A DNA stretch of 64,000 nt from Myxococcota bacterium (GTDB lineage Bacteria; Myxococcota_A; Polyangia; Polyangiales; Sandaracinaceae), in NCBI GenBank assembly GCA_036149055.1, contig JAYZQJ010000078.1, positions 23,519-87,518 of the forward strand, in the 5' to 3' direction. Both the position numbers and the translations under genes were made by a program. The notes below the pieces were generated by a model. That model was not told the DNA's origin, ran no database searches, and saw nothing but the letters and a program-made list of their open reading frames with translations. This document shows, one piece after another, positions 12,302-22,087 of this stretch (its first letter is position 1; the number at the start of each line of letters is the position of its first letter).

Positions 12302-12426
12302 GGGCTCCCTCGACGTACGACACATCCGATCACGGGGAAGCCCGGCATATGTAACAGGATGGAGAAATCTTGCGAGTGCATCTGCGCGCATCGGCGTGGT
12401 CGGATGCCACCGTTTTTGGTATCTCC

Positions 12427-14865
12427 ATGCCCGTGTGGCGGTGGGCCTGGCTGCTCGCGTTCGTGCTGGCGACGGCGCCGGGGTCCGCGGCGTTGGGGCA
12501 GGACGCCCCTGCCGAAGGCGCCGAGGAGGGCGAGCCGGCCCCGCCGACGCGGCCCGCGCTGACGCCGCCCAGCCTGATCGAGGCGCCGCCCGTCTCGCTC
12601 CCGGAGGGCGCCGAGCCGCTCCCCGAGGACGCGGCGGTCGAGCTGCAGATCACGATCGCCCCCGACGGAACCGTGAGCGAGGCGCAGATCCTCACCCCGG
12701 TGCGCGACGACGTCGACGCGCTCGTGCTCGAGGCGGCTCAGGGCATGCGGTTCGAGCCGGCCACCCGCGACGGAGAGCCGATCCCGGCGCGGGTTCGCTT
12801 CCGCTACCGCATCACCCCGCCCCCGCCGCCGCCCGCGCCCGAGGAGCCGCTCGAGAGCGCGGCCGAGGCGATGGAGGCGGAGGCGCCGCTCGGCGGCGAG
12901 CCCACCGGGCTGGACGTCTCGGAGATGGAGACCGACGTCGAGGAGCTCGGGGTGACCGCGGTGACCGAGCGGCCCGAGCCAGGCGCCGCCGAGCGCATCA
13001 CCCTGTCGGCGGAGGAGCTGACCACGGTGCCCGGCACCTTCGGCGAGCCGCTGCGGGTGGTGGCCACCCTCCCCGGCGTCGCGCGGAGCCCCTTCGGGCT
13101 CGGCTTCTTCCTCGTCCGCGGCGCGGCGTTCAACAACACCGGCTTCTTCGTCGACGGCTTCCCGGTGCCGCTCCTCTACCACCTCGGCGCGGGCCCGGCG
13201 GTGATCTCGAGCCGGCTCGTCTCGGAGCTCAACTTCTACCCCGGCGGCTACCCGGCGATGTTCGGGCGGTTCAGCGCGGGCGTGATCGCGGTGGAGACCG
13301 AGGCGCCCGAGGTGCGGAGCCCGCGCGGGGAGCTCGAGATCGACATCTTCCGGGCGAGCCTGCTCGCGGTGATCCCCTTCGACGAGAACCGGGGCTCGAT
13401 CGCGGTCGCCTTCCGCCGCAGCTACTACGATCTGCTGCTGCCGCTCGTCGTCGACGGGCTCGACATCAACTACACCGACTACCAGGTCCGCACGAGCTAC
13501 CGGGTCGACTCCCGCATGGAGCTGAGCCTCTTCGTCTTCGGCTCGGACGACGTGCTCGACCAGAGCGGCAGCTTCGGCGGCGGCATGGCGAGCGAGGGCG
13601 TGCAGACGCGCCTCGGCTACGACTTCCAGCGCATCATCGGCCGCATCGACCTGCGCCTCCCCGAGCGGGTCCGGGTCCGCCTCAGCGGCATGCTCGGCCG
13701 GGACGGCAACACCTTCACCAACGCGTCGCCCGGCACCGACGGGCTTCGCTTCGCGCTTCAGAACAGCTACGCGGCGTTCCGGCTCGACGCGCAGATCCCC
13801 TGGATCGACGAGCTCGAGACGCGCGTCGGCTTCGACATCAACGCCACCCTCTTCGACGTCGAGGCGTCGGCGTTCACGCCCATCGGGCTCGGCCAGTACC
13901 CGACGCCGCTGTTCACGCCGCAGGCCACCCCGGTGGACCTGACGGTCGTGCGCGCGCTCGCCGCCTTCTACATCGACCAGATCATCCGCCTCGGCCCGGT
14001 CGAGATCAGCGCGGCCGGCCGCTTCGACTACATGCGCTACGGCACCGTCTCGGAGGTCTTCCCCGACCCGCGCCTCGTGGTGCGCTGGCAGGTGGTTCCC
14101 GAGCTGAAGCTGAAGGCCGCGACCGGGCTCTTCACCCAGCCGCCGAGCGTCTTCCAGATCACGCGACAGACCGGGAGCACGGATCTCGCGCCCAACCGCG
14201 CGTGGCAGAGCTCGGCCGGCCTCGAGCTGATGCTGCCCGAGCGCATCGAGGTGCACACGACCGGCTTCTACAGCCAGATGTTCGACATCTCGCGGCAGGT
14301 GAATCGGGTCATCGACACCCCGGAGGGCCCGCGCCGCCAGTTCTTCGTCGCCGACGGCGAGGGCCGCTCCTACGGCCTGGAGCTGCTGGTCCGACGCAAG
14401 GTGGATCGCGGGCTCTATGGCTGGCTGAGCTACACCCTGAGCCGGAGCGAGCGGCGGACCGGCGCCGGCACCTGGGAGCCCTTCGTCTTCGACCAGACGC
14501 ACATCCTCAACTTCGCGCTCAGCTACAGCGTGGACGGCTGGCGCTTCGGCGCGGCCTTCCAGCTCGCGACCGGTCGGCCGAGCGACACCCTGGTCGGCAC
14601 CATCTACGACGCCGACGAGGACGAGTTCGATCCGTCGTTCCGCACGCTCGGCGGCCGGCTCGACACCTTCACGCGGCTGGATCTCCGCATCGACCGCGAC
14701 TTCGAGGTCGGCCCCATCCGCGGCTCCGTCTACCTCGACGTCCAGAACGTCTACAACGCGACCAACAACGAGGGCGTGCTCTACCAGCACGACTACCTGC
14801 GCACCGCCAACCTCCCCGGCCTGCCGATCATCCCGGCGATCGGGGTGAGGGGGATCATCGAATGA
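12427..14865 (+). CDS. TonB-dependent receptor with N-terminal TonB_C-like domain (myxobacterial type)
   Basis: Signal peptide; TonB_C-like segment (ITIAPDGTV...MRFEPATRDGEP); Pro-rich linker; plug motifs (VPGTFGEPLRVVATLPGV, VRG, YHLG, FYPGGYP); barrel end GRSYGLE, FDQTH, RLDLRID, YLDVQNVYN, LPIIPAIGV. Confidence 0.88.
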   Translation: MPVWRWAWLLAFVLATAPGSAALGQDAPAEGAEEGEPAPPTRPALTPPSLIEAPPVSLPEGAEPLPEDAAVELQITIAPDGTVSEAQILTPVRDDVDALVLEAAQGMRFEPATRDGEPIPARVRFRYRITPPPPPPAPEEPLESAAEAMEAEAPLGGEPTGLDVSEMETDVEELGVTAVTERPEPGAAERITLSAEELTTVPGTFGEPLRVVATLPGVARSPFGLGFFLVRGAAFNNTGFFVDGFPVPLLYHLGAGPAVISSRLVSELNFYPGGYPAMFGRFSAGVIAVETEAPEVRSPRGELEIDIFRASLLAVIPFDENRGSIAVAFRRSYYDLLLPLVVDGLDINYTDYQVRTSYRVDSRMELSLFVFGSDDVLDQSGSFGGGMASEGVQTRLGYDFQRIIGRIDLRLPERVRVRLSGMLGRDGNTFTNASPGTDGLRFALQNSYAAFRLDAQIPWIDELETRVGFDINATLFDVEASAFTPIGLGQYPTPLFTPQATPVDLTVVRALAAFYIDQIIRLGPVEISAAGRFDYMRYGTVSEVFPDPRLVVRWQVVPELKLKAATGLFTQPPSVFQITRQTGSTDLAPNRAWQSSAGLELMLPERIEVHTTGFYSQMFDISRQVNRVIDTPEGPRRQFFVADGEGRSYGLELLVRRKVDRGLYGWLSYTLSRSERRTGAGTWEPFVFDQTHILNFALSYSVDGWRFGAAFQLATGRPSDTLVGTIYDADEDEFDPSFRTLGGRLDTFTRLDLRIDRDFEVGPIRGSVYLDVQNVYNATNNEGVLYQHDYLRTANLPGLPIIPAIGVRGIIE

Positions 14866-15833
14866 GGCGCCTCCTCCCCGTGCTCTGCCTGCTGCTGTCG
14901 ACCGGGTGCCTCGACATCGACTTCGACTCGCCGCACCTCATCCAGTACGAGCGCATCATCGGCCTCCGCGCCGAGCCGCCCGAGGCGCAGTTCGGCGAGG
15001 ACGTGGTCTTCACCGCGCTGGTGGTCGACGAGACCGGCGCCAACCTGGCGATGGAGCCCGACGTCGAGCTGCGGTGGTCGGTCTGCGTGAGCCTGGCCGC
15101 CATCGTGCGCGGCGCGGGGCTCGGCGCCGGGAGCGACCTCGAGGACGACTGCCGCGAGGGCGGCGACGACCTCGTCCGGTTGAGCGCCGAGGGCCTGCCC
15201 CCCGACTCGGCCCGGCTGCCCGGCGCGGCGGTGGTCGCGGTCATCGCCGAGCTCATGGCCCCCGGCGGCGGCGGCGGCCTGCCCTCGATCCCCGGCCTCG
15301 ATCCGGGCAGCGCGCGGTCGCTGCTGACGGTGATCGCCGAGGTCGGCGTGCCGCTCAGCGTGCGCCTCGAGGTCTACCGGCAGGGCGAGCTGATCCAGAC
15401 CGGCTTCAAGCGCTTCGCGATCGTGATGCGCGAGGACCCGACCACGAACCCGCCGCCGCCGCGCTTCGCGCTCGACGGCGCCTTCGTGAGCGCGCGGGGC
15501 GAAGGCGACCCCACCCGGTGCGTCCCCGAGGAGGGCCCGATCGTGCTCGACGCCGGCGCCGAGATCGCGCTCGACCCCGACGACGACGAGGAGGCCTGGC
15601 TCGAGACCTACCCCGTCTTCAACTTCGACGGCGAGGTGCAGGAGAACGAGGAGAGCGCCTACTACTCCTGGTTCGTCACCGCCGGCTCCATGGCCGACGA
15701 CATCACCCAGCGCCCCGAGGACGACACCGCCTGGACGACCCCCGAGGAGCCCGGCACCTACCCGCTCTGGCTCGTCGTGCGCGACGGCCACCTCGGGATG
15801 TCGTGGTGCCAGGTCGACGTGGAGGTGCGCTAG
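14862..15833 (+). CDS. Lipoprotein partner of the TonB-dependent receptor, function unknown
   Basis: ATGA overlap with the receptor; lipobox LSTGC; RIIGLRAEPPE and C-terminal SWFVTAG...LWLVVRDGHLG. It is the 3' part of ORF 12189..15833. Confidence 0.75.
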   Translation: MRRLLPVLCLLLSTGCLDIDFDSPHLIQYERIIGLRAEPPEAQFGEDVVFTALVVDETGANLAMEPDVELRWSVCVSLAAIVRGAGLGAGSDLEDDCREGGDDLVRLSAEGLPPDSARLPGAAVVAVIAELMAPGGGGGLPSIPGLDPGSARSLLTVIAEVGVPLSVRLEVYRQGELIQTGFKRFAIVMREDPTTNPPPPRFALDGAFVSARGEGDPTRCVPEEGPIVLDAGAEIALDPDDDEEAWLETYPVFNFDGEVQENEESAYYSWFVTAGSMADDITQRPEDDTAWTTPEEPGTYPLWLVVRDGHLGMSWCQVDVEVR

Positions 15834-17551: not shown

Positions 17552-18688
17552 ATGAGCGCCCCCCATGACCTCTTCGCCGCCTGCGCCCCCGGTCTCGAGC
17601 CCCTCCTCGAGGCCGAGCTGTCGTCGCTCGGCACCCTGTCCCCCAAGGCCGTGCCCGGCGGGGTCGTCTTCGGCGGGCACCGACGCGTGCTCTACCGGGT
17701 GAACCTCGAGAGCGGGCTCGCGAGCCACGTGCGCGTGCGGGTCGGCCGCTTCCTCGCGCGCTCCTTCGAGGAGCTGGAGCGCGAGGCGGCCCAGATCCCC
17801 TGGGAGCGCTACCTGAGCCCCGGGGTGCCCCGCCGCTTCCGGGTCACCGCTCGCAAGAGCCGGCTCCATCACACCGACGCGCTCGCCGAGCGCCTCTCGA
17901 AGATCATCGCGATCCGCCTCGGCGATCACCTCGCGGTGCCCGATCCGGGCGGCGTTCGGGTGCACCTCCGGATCGAGCGCGATCGCGCGGGCTGCTCGAT
18001 CGACAGCTCCGGGGAGCCCCTCCACCGCCGCGGCTGGCGGACCCACGTGGGCCCGGCGCCGCTCCGCGAGGACCTCGCGCGGGCCCTGATCGTGGCCAGC
18101 GGCTGGGAGCCGGGCCAGGCGCTCTGGGATCCGCTCTGCGGCAGCGGCACGATCGCGATCGAGGCGGCGACGATGGCGCGCGGCATGGCGCCGGGCCGCA
18201 TGCGGGGCTTCGACTTCGAGCGCACCCCGCTCCTGCACGCGCCGACCTGGGACGCGGTGAAGGCCGAGGCCCGGGATCGCGTCGGCGAGAGCGCGTCGAG
18301 CTTCGGCGCCAGCGACCGCGACGAGGCGGTGCTGCAGGCGGCCCGCGCCAACGCGGAGCGCGCCGGGGTCGAGATCGCGTTCGAGCGCTCCAGCGTCACC
18401 CAGGCCGTCCGCCCCGAGGGCCCGCGCGGCGCGCTGGTCACCAACCCGCCCTACGGGCATCGCCTCGGCGAGGGCGAGGACCTGCGCCCGCTCTACGACG
18501 CGCTCGGCCGGCGGGCCGAGGAGCTGCCGCCCGGGTGGAGCGCCGCGCTCTACGCGACCGATCGCAAGCTCGGGCACCGCGTGGGGCCCGGGCTCACGAC
18601 CGCCTTCGTCGCCGACGCGGGCGGCCTCAAGGTGCGGGCCCTGGTCAGAAGCCCTGCTGAGAGCCGACCAGCAGACGCACCGAGCTGA
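17552..18688 (+). CDS. THUMP-domain class I SAM-dependent RNA methyltransferase (RlmL/UPF0020-like)
   Basis: FAACAPGLE, IDSSGEPLHRRGWR, APLREDLA, LWDPLCGSGTIAIEAA, VTNPPYG. Confidence 0.88.
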   Translation: MSAPHDLFAACAPGLEPLLEAELSSLGTLSPKAVPGGVVFGGHRRVLYRVNLESGLASHVRVRVGRFLARSFEELEREAAQIPWERYLSPGVPRRFRVTARKSRLHHTDALAERLSKIIAIRLGDHLAVPDPGGVRVHLRIERDRAGCSIDSSGEPLHRRGWRTHVGPAPLREDLARALIVASGWEPGQALWDPLCGSGTIAIEAATMARGMAPGRMRGFDFERTPLLHAPTWDAVKAEARDRVGESASSFGASDRDEAVLQAARANAERAGVEIAFERSSVTQAVRPEGPRGALVTNPPYGHRLGEGEDLRPLYDALGRRAEELPPGWSAALYATDRKLGHRVGPGLTTAFVADAGGLKVRALVRSPAESRPADAPS

Positions 18689-20249
18689 CCTGCGCGCCCT
18701 GGTCGAAGGGCTCCGATCCGAAGGCGAGCAGGATGTTGAACGACTGGTCGCGATCCCCGATCGAGCGGAGGCCGAAGCCGAAGCTCATCCGGAGTCGCTC
18801 GACGTGGAAGTTCGACAGGCGCTCCTCGAAGACGTTGCCCACCGAGAAGTGCAGCGAGCCGTCCAGCCAGACCCAGACCGGGTAGCGGTACTCGAGGGTC
18901 GCCACGAGCGCGCTCCGGTCGACGAGCTGGTTCTGGATGAAGCCGCTCATGATCATCGGATCGCCGCCGAGGTTGACCTGCTCGAGCCACGGGACCGGCG
19001 CCGTGCCGAGCGGGTCGGCGAAGCGGGCGAGGCCGTAGAGCCCGAAGATCCGGTTGGCGCCGACGTCGAGGAAGCCGCCGATGGCGCCGCCGTACTGGAT
19101 CCAGCGGTTCTCCACCGGTTCGTTCAGGTCGAAGCCGAGCCCCGTGTAGGCCTCGACGCGCACCCCGTGGCCCGCCGCCGGGCGCGGCTCGCGGGTGTCG
19201 ATGACCACGTCGAGGCGCTGACGGTAGGCGGTGTAGCCCTCGAACCCGGGCGGCAGCTCGTACCAGCCCTGATCGTCGACCGCCTGCTGGAGGGTCGGGT
19301 CGCCGCGTCGGCCCCAGTTGTAGCCGTCGGGCGCGAACTGGTTCCAGATCACGCCGGCCCGGAACCGGACCTCGCTCTCGCGCCAGGGCATGAAGCGGAA
19401 GTCGAGCCGCCCCTCGAGGTAGTCGCGGCGGTACCGCGAGCGCTGCGAGCGCTCCGAGTCGTAGCCGGTGCCCTGGTAGACGAAGTCCGGGCGGTGGAGC
19501 GCGTCGAAGGTCAGGCCGAGCTCGGTCTCCTCGCTGAGCCGGAGCCGGTCGCTGATGGTGCCGCGCAGCCAGTCGATCCCGCCGAACGCGGCCGACACGC
19601 GGAAGAAGTTGCCCTCGAGGACGTCCGGCGCGTTGTGCCAGAAGAAGAGCCCGACGCTCGGCTGGAAGCCGAAGTCGAAGAAGGCGGTCGGCACCAGGCC
19701 GGCGCGTCGCTCCTCGAAGGTGAAGAAGTCGATGAGCAGCGCGGTCCAGTTCTCGCGCTCCGCGGTGGTCAGGAACCACCCGAGCGGCTGACGGATCACG
19801 TACTCGAAGACCAGGTGGATCGGGAAGAAGAGGATGCGGGGGACCCAGAGCAGGACCTCGCCCGCGTCCGGCCCCGGCTCGGCGCGCCCGTCGTAGTCGG
19901 GGAGCTCGCGGCGCGCGATGGTGGGCTCGGTCGGCTCGTCGCCCTCCTCCGCTTCGCCCTCCTCCGCTTCGTCCTCGGCCTCGTCGTCCTCGTCGTCAGC
20001 GGCCTCGTCGTCTCCGGTCCGGAGCTCGGCCTGGTCCTCGTCGACCTCGACCGGCGCCTCCTCGACCGGGATCGGCTCCTCGGGGTCCGGGTCGCCGTCG
20101 GCGCCCGAGTCCTCGACCGTCTCGACCGGGAGCGGGATCTCGCCGCCGTCGTCGGCGTCCTGCGCGGCCGCGGAAGTGCTGATGGCGAAGAGCGCCGTGC
20201 TCGCGGCCAGGAGGGCTGCGAGACGGAGGTTGAAGAGCGCGGGCTTCAT
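18645..20249 (-). CDS. Omp85/BamA-superfamily-like outer-membrane beta-barrel with acidic N-terminal extension
   Basis: Signal peptide (AAAQ), then a D/E-rich tract and amphipathic beta-strands. Late motifs LGGDPMIMSGF..NQLVDRSALVATLEYRYPVW, GNVF, SFGFGLR; terminal Phe. Confidence 0.72.
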   Translation of the reverse strand: MKPALFNLRLAALLAASTALFAISTSAAAQDADDGGEIPLPVETVEDSGADGDPDPEEPIPVEEAPVEVDEDQAELRTGDDEAADDEDDEAEDEAEEGEAEEGDEPTEPTIARRELPDYDGRAEPGPDAGEVLLWVPRILFFPIHLVFEYVIRQPLGWFLTTAERENWTALLIDFFTFEERRAGLVPTAFFDFGFQPSVGLFFWHNAPDVLEGNFFRVSAAFGGIDWLRGTISDRLRLSEETELGLTFDALHRPDFVYQGTGYDSERSQRSRYRRDYLEGRLDFRFMPWRESEVRFRAGVIWNQFAPDGYNWGRRGDPTLQQAVDDQGWYELPPGFEGYTAYRQRLDVVIDTREPRPAAGHGVRVEAYTGLGFDLNEPVENRWIQYGGAIGGFLDVGANRIFGLYGLARFADPLGTAPVPWLEQVNLGGDPMIMSGFIQNQLVDRSALVATLEYRYPVWVWLDGSLHFSVGNVFEERLSNFHVERLRMSFGFGLRSIGDRDQSFNILLAFGSEPFDQGAQVSSVRLLVGSQQGF

Positions 20250-21952
20250 CGTCCGGGCGCCTCCACGCTGGAGGGCCGCTCGAGCCCGACGAGCTGGATG
20301 TCACCGGGCCCCTTGGCGTACAGGTGGACCCGCGCCGGCAGGGTGGTCTCGCGTCCCGGGGTCTGGGCGATCACGTCCACCACGACGTAGGTCGGGTCGG
20401 CCGCGCTCGCCGCCACGTCGGGCAACGCCGCGCACACGTAGTGCTCGGCGGAGCGCGTCAGGCCGGGGCTCTCGACCGGCTCGAGGGCGTCCCCCGCCCA
20501 CGCCCGCGCCGAGTAGCGCCGGGTCGCGCGGTCACGGATTCCGCTCCATGTGGCCAGGTCCTGCATACAGAGCTCGCTGCCGCCCTCCTCTCGGGGACGT
20601 ACATAGGGCCACGTCAACGGTGACAAGCGCGTCAGGTAGCGCTCGAGGATCCGGTCACGGCGCCCCGCGAGGATGCGCGCCAGCTCCTGCTCGACCACCG
20701 GATCGTGAAAACGTCCCTGCGCCGCGAGCGCCGCCAGGTGAGGGTCTCGGAAGCGCGCGATGATGCGCGCCATCCAGGCCGCGTCGCGCTCGGTGTGGCG
20801 GTCGAACGAGGGGTTGGGGTAGCCCGGGCGCCAGGCGTCGGGCTCGAACCGGAAGACGTCGTAGTAGCCGAGCGTGCGGCCGGCCGGGCCCTCCTGGGCG
20901 ACGAACCAGGGGCGCGCCGCGAGGTCGAGGGTCAGCCAGTCGGTGACCACGTGCTCGAAGTCGAGGTAGCCCGAGTGTCCGAAGCGGCGGACGAGGTACT
21001 CCCACTCGTGCACGATGCCGAAGCAGTCGCCGAAGTCGATCATGTAGTGGCGCACGTAGCCGTCGTCGGCGCCGTCTTCGGTCATCCACGCGGCGAGCGT
21101 GTTCTCCTGCCGCGAGTCGATGTGGTCGGTCCACGCGGCGAGCACGACCATGCCCCGGGTCTCGCGGCGGTGCTGGTGCGGGACGACGTCGTTCGGGTCG
21201 TCGGACCGGACGCCCTCGTAGCGCCAGGGGCTGATCGGCCGGCCCTCGATGAAGCGGCTGACGCTCGCCCGGTAGCGCCCGTCCGGGAGCTGGAGCGCCG
21301 CCTCCATCACCGCGTCGATGTGATGCTGCTCGAGCGGCTCCTCGACCCCGTTCGTGCGCTCGATGGTGGCCTCGGGATCGACGACGAGGATGTCGCGGTC
21401 GAAGTGCACGACGCGGTTGCAGGGCGTCCAGTAGCCGGCCGCGTGGTAGATGGCCGCGCCGATCGTGTCGGCGGCCCCCGGGCGCCACGGCTGCCGGGTG
21501 CCTTCGGTCTTGAGCAGGTAGCGCTGCCCGTTCGCGTCGCGGATCTGGAAGCCCGGGTTGGCGCCGTCGGGCTTGCCGCCGACGATGGTCCACGGCCCCG
21601 GGATGTCGAAGCGCTCGCCGCACGCCCCCTGGGCGACCTGCTCGGGGCTCATCAGCCGCCGGCTCAGCCGGTTCTGGAACCAGCTCGAGTCGGGGACCTC
21701 GTCGACCGAGTTGACGTTCACCGCCTCGCGCGAGGGCTCGAAGAGCCAGAACTCGCTCACCGGACGGAAGAAGGTGTTGTCCGCCCCGTCCCACATGTAG
21801 GGGGAGTAGAAGGACTCCGGCATCGGCCGGAAGCGGCGCTGATCGGCGTCCTCCCACATCACCTCGGCGAGCGGGTACCGGCGCAGGCCGGTGGTGGCGC
21901 AGCCGGAGAGCGCGGCGATCAGCAGAGCGAGCAGGGGGGCGGGTCGGGTCAC
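20246..21952 (-). CDS. Lipoprotein with predicted atypical protein-kinase-like (HipA/PI3-4K/CotH-like) fold
   Basis: GTG 21952 and lipobox ALSGC. Kinase-like motifs in order: GGKPDGANPGF, RYLLK, HIDSRQENTL (D-x4-N), MIDFGDCFG. Its stop overlaps the barrel gene start (ATGA). Confidence 0.7.
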   Translation of the reverse strand: MTRPAPLLALLIAALSGCATTGLRRYPLAEVMWEDADQRRFRPMPESFYSPYMWDGADNTFFRPVSEFWLFEPSREAVNVNSVDEVPDSSWFQNRLSRRLMSPEQVAQGACGERFDIPGPWTIVGGKPDGANPGFQIRDANGQRYLLKTEGTRQPWRPGAADTIGAAIYHAAGYWTPCNRVVHFDRDILVVDPEATIERTNGVEEPLEQHHIDAVMEAALQLPDGRYRASVSRFIEGRPISPWRYEGVRSDDPNDVVPHQHRRETRGMVVLAAWTDHIDSRQENTLAAWMTEDGADDGYVRHYMIDFGDCFGIVHEWEYLVRRFGHSGYLDFEHVVTDWLTLDLAARPWFVAQEGPAGRTLGYYDVFRFEPDAWRPGYPNPSFDRHTERDAAWMARIIARFRDPHLAALAAQGRFHDPVVEQELARILAGRRDRILERYLTRLSPLTWPYVRPREEGGSELCMQDLATWSGIRDRATRRYSARAWAGDALEPVESPGLTRSAEHYVCAALPDVAASAADPTYVVVDVIAQTPGRETTLPARVHLYAKGPGDIQLVGLERPSSVEAPGR

Positions 21953-22087
21953 GAGATGGCTCCACCTAGCTCCAAACGGGCGCCGGAGCACGCGGGCGGC
22001 GGCGATGGTGAAACATCTCCGGCTCTGCGGTAAAGAGACGCCAGGATCCGGGGGACAAGCATCCGGGGGGGCAAGCGAGGTGACGAG

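Follow-up and report, generated by a model that had tools for sequence, protein, structure and literature searches.

A conserved gene pair encoding a kinase-like lipoprotein and a POTRA-less Omp85-type barrel in a Sandaracinaceae bacterium, and its possible link to ATP carriers

A stretch of 64,000 nucleotides from a Myxococcota bacterium of the Sandaracinaceae (assembly GCA_036149055.1, contig JAYZQJ010000078.1, positions 23,519 to 87,518), referred to below as the window, carries on its reverse strand two genes encoding a kinase-like lipoprotein and an Omp85-type outer-membrane barrel without polypeptide-transport-associated (POTRA) domain (Table 1). Stop and start codons overlap in an ATGA, from which we infer translational coupling. 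A sequence-only reading of this DNA had proposed a dedicated two-gene module with no characterised counterpart. The module is indeed real and conserved in the analysis presented here, and apparently undescribed: no description of a kinase-barrel system was found in the open-licence literature searched, subscription papers lying mostly outside that search, and a term search of two kinase surveys returned no mention of Omp85 or BamA. Neither protein itself matched a Pfam or NCBIfam profile. The window contains the kinase-barrel core only; the linkage to ATP/ADP carriers discussed below is drawn from relatives.

Table 1. Features of the kinase-barrel locus, in window coordinates
Feature	Position	Strand	Detail and basis
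Kinase-like lipoprotein gene (P0001)	20246..21952	-	568 aa, GTG start; translation
Ribosome-binding-like site AGGTGGAG	21960..21967	-	7 nt 5' of the kinase GTG start; from sequence
Lipoprotein signal peptide and lipobox L-S-G-C18	21899..21952	-	Sequence; C18 in at least 90% of 40 homologues
Atypical kinase domain, residues ~111-441	20630..21622	-	VIA-align of the AlphaFold model
Gly-rich loop, residues 125-134, including invariant K127	21551..21580	-	Sequence, alignments
Beta3 lysine K148	21509..21511	-	121/121 close, 142/150 diverse homologues
Catalytic loop H277-x-D279-x-R281-x-x-N284	21101..21124	-	D279 146/150, N284 142/150, R/K281 136/150
DFG motif, D306	21029..21037	-	147/150 homologues
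C-terminal FN3/Ig-like domain, residues ~441-551, likely C462-C507 disulfide	20300..20632	-	Z 6.5-7.3 to many chains
ATGA stop/start overlap (kinase TGA, barrel ATG)	20246..20249	-	Sequence
POTRA-less Omp85-type barrel gene (P0002)	18645..20249	-	534 aa
Barrel-protein signal peptide, residues ~1-29	20163..20249	-	Sequence; model helix 7-27; cleavage site by eye
Acidic disordered linker, 39/79 residues D or E	19926..20162	-	Predicted local distance difference test (pLDDT) <50 over most
N-terminal arm (R114, P117, Y119) and three helices before strand 1, predicted kinase-docking site	19722..19931	-	Conservation, complex model
16-stranded barrel, residues 183-534, terminal Phe	18648..19703	-	Model, alignments

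The kinase-like protein has the signal peptide and lipobox cysteine of a bacterial lipoprotein, and the conservation of Cys18 suggests that this residue is lipidated. A loose lipobox pattern fits 180 of the 237 full-length homologues; the others, examined by eye, mostly carry another signal peptide or a cut N-terminus. Protein-kinase-like motifs had been read in canonical order in this lipoprotein, and they are borne out by alignment: K127, K148, D279, R281, N284 and D306 are unchanged across all 121 close homologues, and the full set of beta3 Lys, catalytic Asp, metal-binding Asn and metal-binding Asp is retained in 139 of 150 diverse ones. Two cysteine pairs covary. Cys111 and Cys178 are both present in 79 and both absent in 70 of the 150 sequences, with a single split case, while C462 and C507 occur together in 97 and are jointly missing in 9 of 106 ungapped rows. 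Since their members come and go together, these pairs are likely disulfides, as expected of an exported protein, and an oxidising compartment is favoured for the kinase. The family is large (1916 homologues within 8000 scored candidates, 3458 clusters at 50% identity). Its closest named members belong mostly to Sandaracinaceae and other Myxococcota; outside this phylum its range is given by labels only, namely those of atlas clusters, among which Acidobacteriota are commonest, and of one named protein. No plasmid match was found for the kinase.

The AlphaFold model of the kinase, computed from a 150-row alignment, has a pLDDT of 96 and shows the bilobed fold of the protein-kinase-like superfamily, in its PI3K/PI4K/Fam20/CotH/HipA branch. 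In VIA-align comparisons the first 13 rows are all atypical kinases (Z 10.3-13.5), led by CtkA (Z 13.5, root-mean-square deviation (rmsd) 3.8, 229 residues aligned) and Fam20C1 (Z 13.3, rmsd 4.0, 255 aligned), followed by PI4K2A (Z 12.7, rmsd 4.4, 232 aligned), CotH (Z 12.0, rmsd 4.5, 232 aligned) and HipA (Z 10.7, rmsd 4.2, 217 aligned); MavQ is also among the nearest folds. Fam20C and CotH work outside the cytoplasm. The kinase fold that had been anticipated was thus recovered by VIA-align and not by Foldseek, which returned nothing below E 0.001. Identity to solved kinases is 8-13%, and when solved structures were searched by sequence, using either the kinase itself or its 40-row profile, chance rows alone came back. 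No match above curated cut-offs was obtained for P0001 with the HipA, HipA_2, CotH, Fam20C and PI3_PI4_kinase profiles; HipA_2 weakly matched 4 of 40 homologues (best E 0.019), and atlas neighbours carrying named kinase families score 0.78-0.80, which makes them leads only. The earlier assignment of an atypical-kinase signature therefore stands for the fold, of CtkA/Fam20C/PI4K2/CotH type, but not for the catalytic loop, which reads D-x-R-x-x-N as in classical protein kinases and not D-R-H-x-x-N as in HipA, PI4K and CotH. The protein further differs from these families by its lack of sequence-level membership, its lipid anchor, its barrel partner and its FN3-like tail, a common fold that many chains match. 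Because the kinase fold is accompanied by invariant residues, we infer an active ATP-dependent phosphotransferase.

The partner gene had been described as overlapping the kinase gene and encoding an Omp85-like barrel with signal peptide, as is confirmed by its model, in which 16 long strands are preceded only by disorder and three helices. The model matches BamA, TamA and Sam50 (best Foldseek E 3.6e-10), PF01103 (Omp85) is found on barrel homologues, and the loop-6 motif M-x-G-F is retained (G436 in 100/102 and F/Y437 in 102/102 homologues), as is the terminal Phe (96/102). Strand number, loop-6 motif and C-terminal aromatic residue thus place it in the Omp85 superfamily. The structure model and the Pfam scan reveal no POTRA domain, which separates it from BamA and TamA, and no folded N-terminal domain is present, so that it falls among the noNterm Omp85 proteins, themselves a default category (PMC11358297). 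No match to NF047779 was found. The lid-lock pair described in PMC11358297 (a loop-6 Arg and the Asp of FxDxG in strand 13), located here by motif and not by superposition, is absent: both positions are Ser in this barrel, and among the 102 homologues the Asp occurs in none and the Arg in 50. In contrast, the N-terminal arm is among the most conserved parts, with R114 in 100, P117 in 98 and Y119 in 97 of the homologues. The POTRA-less 16-stranded barrel is shared with the Metallo-Omp85 and noNterm Omp85 groups (PMC4104836; PMC11358297), in whose available descriptions the word kinase does not occur. Metallo-Omp85 proteins differ in having PF00149 fused to the barrel, a domain that the Pfam scan did not find in P0001 or P0002.

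Pairing was examined in the best 80 of 337 genome loci and in 79 metagenome loci. A barrel on the same strand adjoins the kinase in 61 of the former (44 upstream, 17 downstream) and in 56 of the latter, so that both gene orders occur; nine of the genome loci lacking it have short flanks. One record, P0270 (1000 aa), is a kinase-barrel fusion. The idea of a dedicated module is supported by these counts. A kinase fold, conserved catalytic residues and co-occurring genes, the three points on which the sequence-only reading could have failed, were all found. A search for longer forms of the kinase gave 12 proteins, among them no clean kinase-barrel fusion above 1076 aa; P0411 and P0401 were rejected as long fusions, as they resemble read-throughs into neighbouring genes. 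In P0402-P0410 (~1160 aa; one named Acidobacteriota) the kinase is joined to a 600-aa C-terminal part, which had no Pfam match in those scanned.

A complex model had been suggested as a check, and it predicts that kinase and barrel bind each other. The score, which expresses model confidence only, is 0.76 against 0.00 for the best of three controls; scores this high were attained by 116 of 157 solved complexes and by 2 of 215 mismatched pairs. At least 89% of contacts are shared between runs, with partner pLDDT of at least 87. On the barrel side the contacts involve residues 107-165, 357, 397-400 and 454-466, that is the arm before strand 1 and periplasmic turns, opposite loop 6 (414-445), strands being counted from the model; none falls on loops 4, 6 or 7 or any other outer loop. 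Loop 6 of Omp85 barrels is extracellular (PMC11358297). On the kinase side they include an invariant D-x-N-D stretch (252-255). Structure searches with the kinase revealed no similar solved complex. As all predicted barrel contacts are periplasmic, the kinase most likely sits beneath the barrel, on its periplasmic face.

This placement recalls PlpD of Pseudomonas aeruginosa, which had been invoked as an analogue for translocation. That use of it no longer holds, since its enzyme domain, once thought to be secreted, is periplasmic, lies beneath an Omp85 barrel and is proposed to act on outer-membrane lipids (PMC11116518). PlpD is nevertheless a single chain with a patatin domain, one POTRA domain and an ATP-independent lipase activity, whereas the pair described here has a separate lipoprotein kinase, no POTRA domain and a need for a phosphate donor; the two are alike in layout only. 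Two-partner secretion and BamA/TamA systems also have an Omp85-superfamily barrel encoded beside a partner. The kinase-barrel pair differs from them by the absence of POTRA, of a two-partner secretion (TPS) domain and of the lid-lock pair, and by a partner that is a lipoprotein enzyme. Neither element of a type Vb system (a TpsB with two POTRA domains, a TpsA with TPS domain and beta-helix) was detected by Pfam or in the models.

The phosphate donor is the central difficulty. The periplasm is treated as free of ATP, and phosphorylation known there uses lipid donors, as in the case of LpxT. LpxT likewise phosphorylates on the periplasmic side, and PAP2-family genes recur beside the kinase-barrel module; its donor is undecaprenyl pyrophosphate, not ATP, which the paper states to be unavailable there (PMC2229476). 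Clustering of the neighbours in 159 related loci gave as the commonest partner after the barrel a carrier of the TLC/NTT family (PF03219 in 10 of 11 neighbour proteins scanned). In flanks of up to 6 kb, carriers are present in 29/80 genome and 27/79 metagenome loci, in many gene orders, and in 29 of the 60 loci having at least 5 kb on both sides, counts for which the profiles were built from the same loci, picked by likeness to the query and including near-duplicates. Of random 13.7-kb windows of this genome, 0.32% contain a carrier. Two hundred genomes, sampled evenly over the phylum and not selected by query likeness, included 18 with a strong kinase match (the weak kinase genomes G065 and G175 being excluded); a carrier was present in 17 of these, against 109 of the 200 overall, and at least 11 of the 18 hold one within 6 kb. 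On a tree of 85 kinases the carrier linkage switches 13 times, and it is therefore not a single inherited block. In the clade enclosing the subclade of this copy, the order carrier-kinase-barrel is seen in L009, L011, L016 and L074.

The linked carriers, which lie outside the window, qualify as NTT/TLC proteins by PF03219 and by likeness to the solved NTT1; TIGR00769 gave 38.6 bits against a cut-off of 387. Both single-domain and HEAT-fused forms occur, the latter followed by a gene for a cyclic-nucleotide (cNMP)-binding protein. The fused forms correspond to the NTT-HEAT-cNBD carriers of free-living bacteria, whose function is called unknown in PMC5381601 and for which its available text makes no connection with an exported kinase or a barrel. 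This genome has three carriers (C283, C128 and C14), of which the single-domain one groups with two kinase-adjacent carriers in a quick tree (support 93). Together these neighbours suggest, without proving, that ATP-driven phosphorylation takes place in the periplasm, with the carrier as a third partner offering an internal source of ATP.

In the reading that we prefer, and on which we are evenly divided, the lipoprotein is an ATP-fed periplasmic kinase that its partner barrel keeps at the outer membrane, and exported phosphatases counteract it. The kinase would be exported as a lipoprotein and the barrel by means of its signal peptide, both from the coupled genes. Docking of the kinase would use the conserved arm and the periplasmic turns, the barrel acting, similarly to that of PlpD, as a platform rather than a pore for secretion. 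Inner-membrane TLC/NTT antiporters, encoded elsewhere in this genome, would run in the direction ATP out and ADP in; strict exchange would cap the leak of ATP at what the kinase consumes, and the NTT-HEAT and cNMP-binding proteins may regulate the supply. The weakest step is the substrate, which would be met at the inner face of the outer membrane. Our first choice, at somewhat less than even odds, is a membrane lipid or lipid-linked glycan, which is slightly favoured because of the PI4K2-like fold, the PAP2 and undecaprenyl-diphosphate phosphatase neighbours and the PlpD analogy. An envelope protein is a reasonable second possibility, supported by the number of paralogues and by a catalytic loop of classical type, and a solute arriving through the barrel is unlikely. 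Phosphorylation would finally be reversed by exported PAP2 or calcineurin-like phosphatases.

Phosphatase genes are indeed found nearby. Genes of the PAP2 type occur in 26 of the 159 loci, and undecaprenyl-diphosphate phosphatase genes are also among the neighbours. In the C88 unit of this genome (G000:C88:27043-31123, L234) kinase, barrel and a PF00149 calcineurin-like phosphoesterase lipoprotein are encoded by coupled genes, the last joined to the pair by a GTGA overlap; the unit looks like a split form of the Bacteroidota protein in which PF00149 is joined to a barrel. It lies directly behind a convergent Ser/Thr kinase gene. Strongly hydrophobic segments are few in the PAP2 neighbours (for example L117:526-1584, L104:1825-2778, L094:7601-8782), and the C-terminus of 13 of 15 is a short beta-hairpin-like tail with Gly 2-3 places before a terminal Phe/Trp, which resembles an outer-membrane signal.

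The reverse test started from 20 high-scoring carriers of genomes without strong kinase match. Nine of their regions hold a gene for a phosphoenolpyruvate (PEP)-synthase-like enzyme, and one a kinase-like domain fused to Omp85. The former gene encodes PF01326 in the four cases scanned, and inspection of six by eye showed a signal peptide in each. Those of its carriers that were included in a quick tree form one clade, for which reason the association counts as one event. With less assurance than for the system itself, and leaning rather to doubt, we propose that many free-living diderms deliberately export ATP to the periplasm through NTT antiporters for a reversible cycle of phosphorylation at the outer membrane, made up of a Fam20C-like kinase with its own Omp85 barrel, an exported phosphatase and a carrier under cyclic-nucleotide control. 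Such a bacterial counterpart of the ER/Golgi secretory kinases would give the unexplained NTT carriers a general role and would involve at least three unrelated exported ATP-using enzymes. If true, exported kinase and carrier partners would overturn the notion of an ATP-free periplasm for several lineages and would provide a function both for Omp85 barrels without POTRA domain and for the NTT carriers found in free-living bacteria, each of them an orphan group.

Several observations weigh against this picture. Trp (W156) stands in the subclade of this copy at a position that is Glu in 107 of 150 homologues, with E150 replacing D150 in step. Ten of the 80 genome loci have full flanks yet no adjoining same-strand barrel. 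No carrier adjoins this copy or any of the five other paralogues of the genome, and none of the six rows of its subclade shows one, three of them having short flanks. The counts above overstate independence, because the loci are related and near-duplicates are included. The kinase is found in 18 of the 200 genomes of the phylum sample and carriers, far more widespread, in 109; the kinase genome G097 has no carrier match, and in the reverse test the remaining 10 of the 20 regions contain no recognised exported ATP enzyme. The linked carriers are also distant from the solved NTT1 (best E 4.7e-40). Residues K155, E245, E385 and K527 of the plant carrier are the charged residues needed for ATP/ADP exchange; the corresponding columns are R/K in 36/36, Gly in 31/36, E/D in 36/36 and K in 36/36 of the linked carriers, so that three of the four are kept. 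These proteins may therefore move another substrate than ATP, Gly standing in most where NTT1 has a conserved Glu. The literature search returned no carrier-structure paper. Reconstituted PamNTT1, moreover, prefers to import ATP, even against a gradient, and its import of ADP against ATP is barely over background (PMC1951785); carriers supplying ATP outwards would thus have to differ from it.

The direction of nucleotide flow separates the preferred reading from its best rival, which we hold to be unlikely. There the same periplasmic complex would receive ATP or other nucleotides of lysed prey or environment through the barrel, the kinase would use or sense them, and the carriers would import nucleotides as they do in parasites. 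Myxobacteria are predators, and the pore of the barrel family, in which the lid-lock Asp is missing throughout and the Arg in half, could stand open. The carriers characterised so far import (PMC5381601, PMC1951785). Inward flow leaves unexplained why carriers cluster with unrelated exported ATP-using enzymes that have no barrel match alongside, and the phosphatase partners point to a regulated cycle. External ATP is scarce and is destroyed by periplasmic nucleotidases.

It is quite improbable that the kinase fold performs other chemistry or none, as a nucleotide sensor, an AMP transferase or ligase, or a scaffold gating the barrel. The low identity to solved kinases, the failure of Foldseek and the loss of catalytic residues in 11 of 150 homologues leave room for it, as do SelO and SidJ, kinase folds with other reactions; it is opposed by canonical residues in canonical order in the other 139 and by phosphatases as repeated neighbours.

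Least probable is the earlier proposal that the barrel translocates the kinase or displays it on the surface, where it would draw on outside ATP and act on targets in prey, matrix or surface. Nearest folds such as CtkA, Fam20C, CotH and MavQ act outside the cytoplasm or in host cells, and the 79-residue acidic linker could serve as a flexible tether; the adjoining genes for an Omp85-family protein and a passenger do recall two-partner secretion (PMC11358297), but the kinase is predicted to dock on the periplasmic face, no secretion feature was found in either protein, a globular fold with likely disulfides is unlike beta-helical passengers (PMC11116518), and the carrier link is given no place.

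Six kinase paralogues occur in this genome: four with a full barrel, C69 with the arm and first helices, and C4 alone. The barrel remnant beside C69 (6098-6451, in L002) consists of signal peptide, docking arm and first helices followed by a clean stop, and represents either a deletion or a barrel-free anchor. Contigs from four RNA-library runs span both genes of the window, one crossing the kinase-barrel junction; as they cover the flanks too and may derive from DNA, expression of the pair cannot be claimed from them.

The fused kinase-like-Omp85 gene met in the reverse test comes after a carrier in 3 of 5 genomes, and the kinase-like domain of L187 matches the middle of the Bacteroidota PF00149-barrel protein. 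Such middle domains (L187:9325-12129, L194:8819-12499, L197:6771-10529) are present in Bacteroidota Metallo-Omp85 proteins and in shorter myxobacterial forms; they show a Gly loop, an Arg, D-R-H and D-R-D, and have no Pfam match. Their kinship with the kinase family is weak (hhalign probability 10%, E 0.003) and was not significant in a single-sequence comparison. The four Bacteroidota plasmid Metallo-Omp85 examples viewed have no carrier beside them, either by annotation or by search.

The PEP-synthase-like genes belong to a second carrier-linked cluster (L175:10665-13739, L176:10842-14270, L177:10867-14022, L178:10756-13860, L179, L182-L185), in which a signal-peptide-bearing PEP-synthase/rifampin-phosphotransferase-like enzyme with PF01326 and PF00391 is accompanied by exported class-A beta-lactamase-like hydrolases and a transglutaminase-like lipoprotein. 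In three of these regions a large NAD-glutamate dehydrogenase gene adjoins the carrier (L182:8523-13313, L183:1979-6853, L184:8575-13689), which hints at NAD as a possible substrate of some carriers.

The pair is flanked in the window by a convergent RlmL-like methyltransferase gene, which shares 44 bases with the barrel gene at the 3' ends (18645-18688), and by a divergent M32 peptidase gene. These were rejected as members of the module and lie outside the unit, because such flanking genes recur rarely in the 159 related loci (M32 peptidase in 3, M15 peptidase in 2, RlmL-like and NYN in 1 each). Elsewhere in the window, positions 12370-15833 encode a TonB-dependent receptor fused to TonB-C and, beginning 4 bases before its gene ends, a lipoprotein of unknown family. 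The first 10,000 bases have a G+C content of 66-69%, against 70-76% over the remainder, and are possibly foreign DNA.

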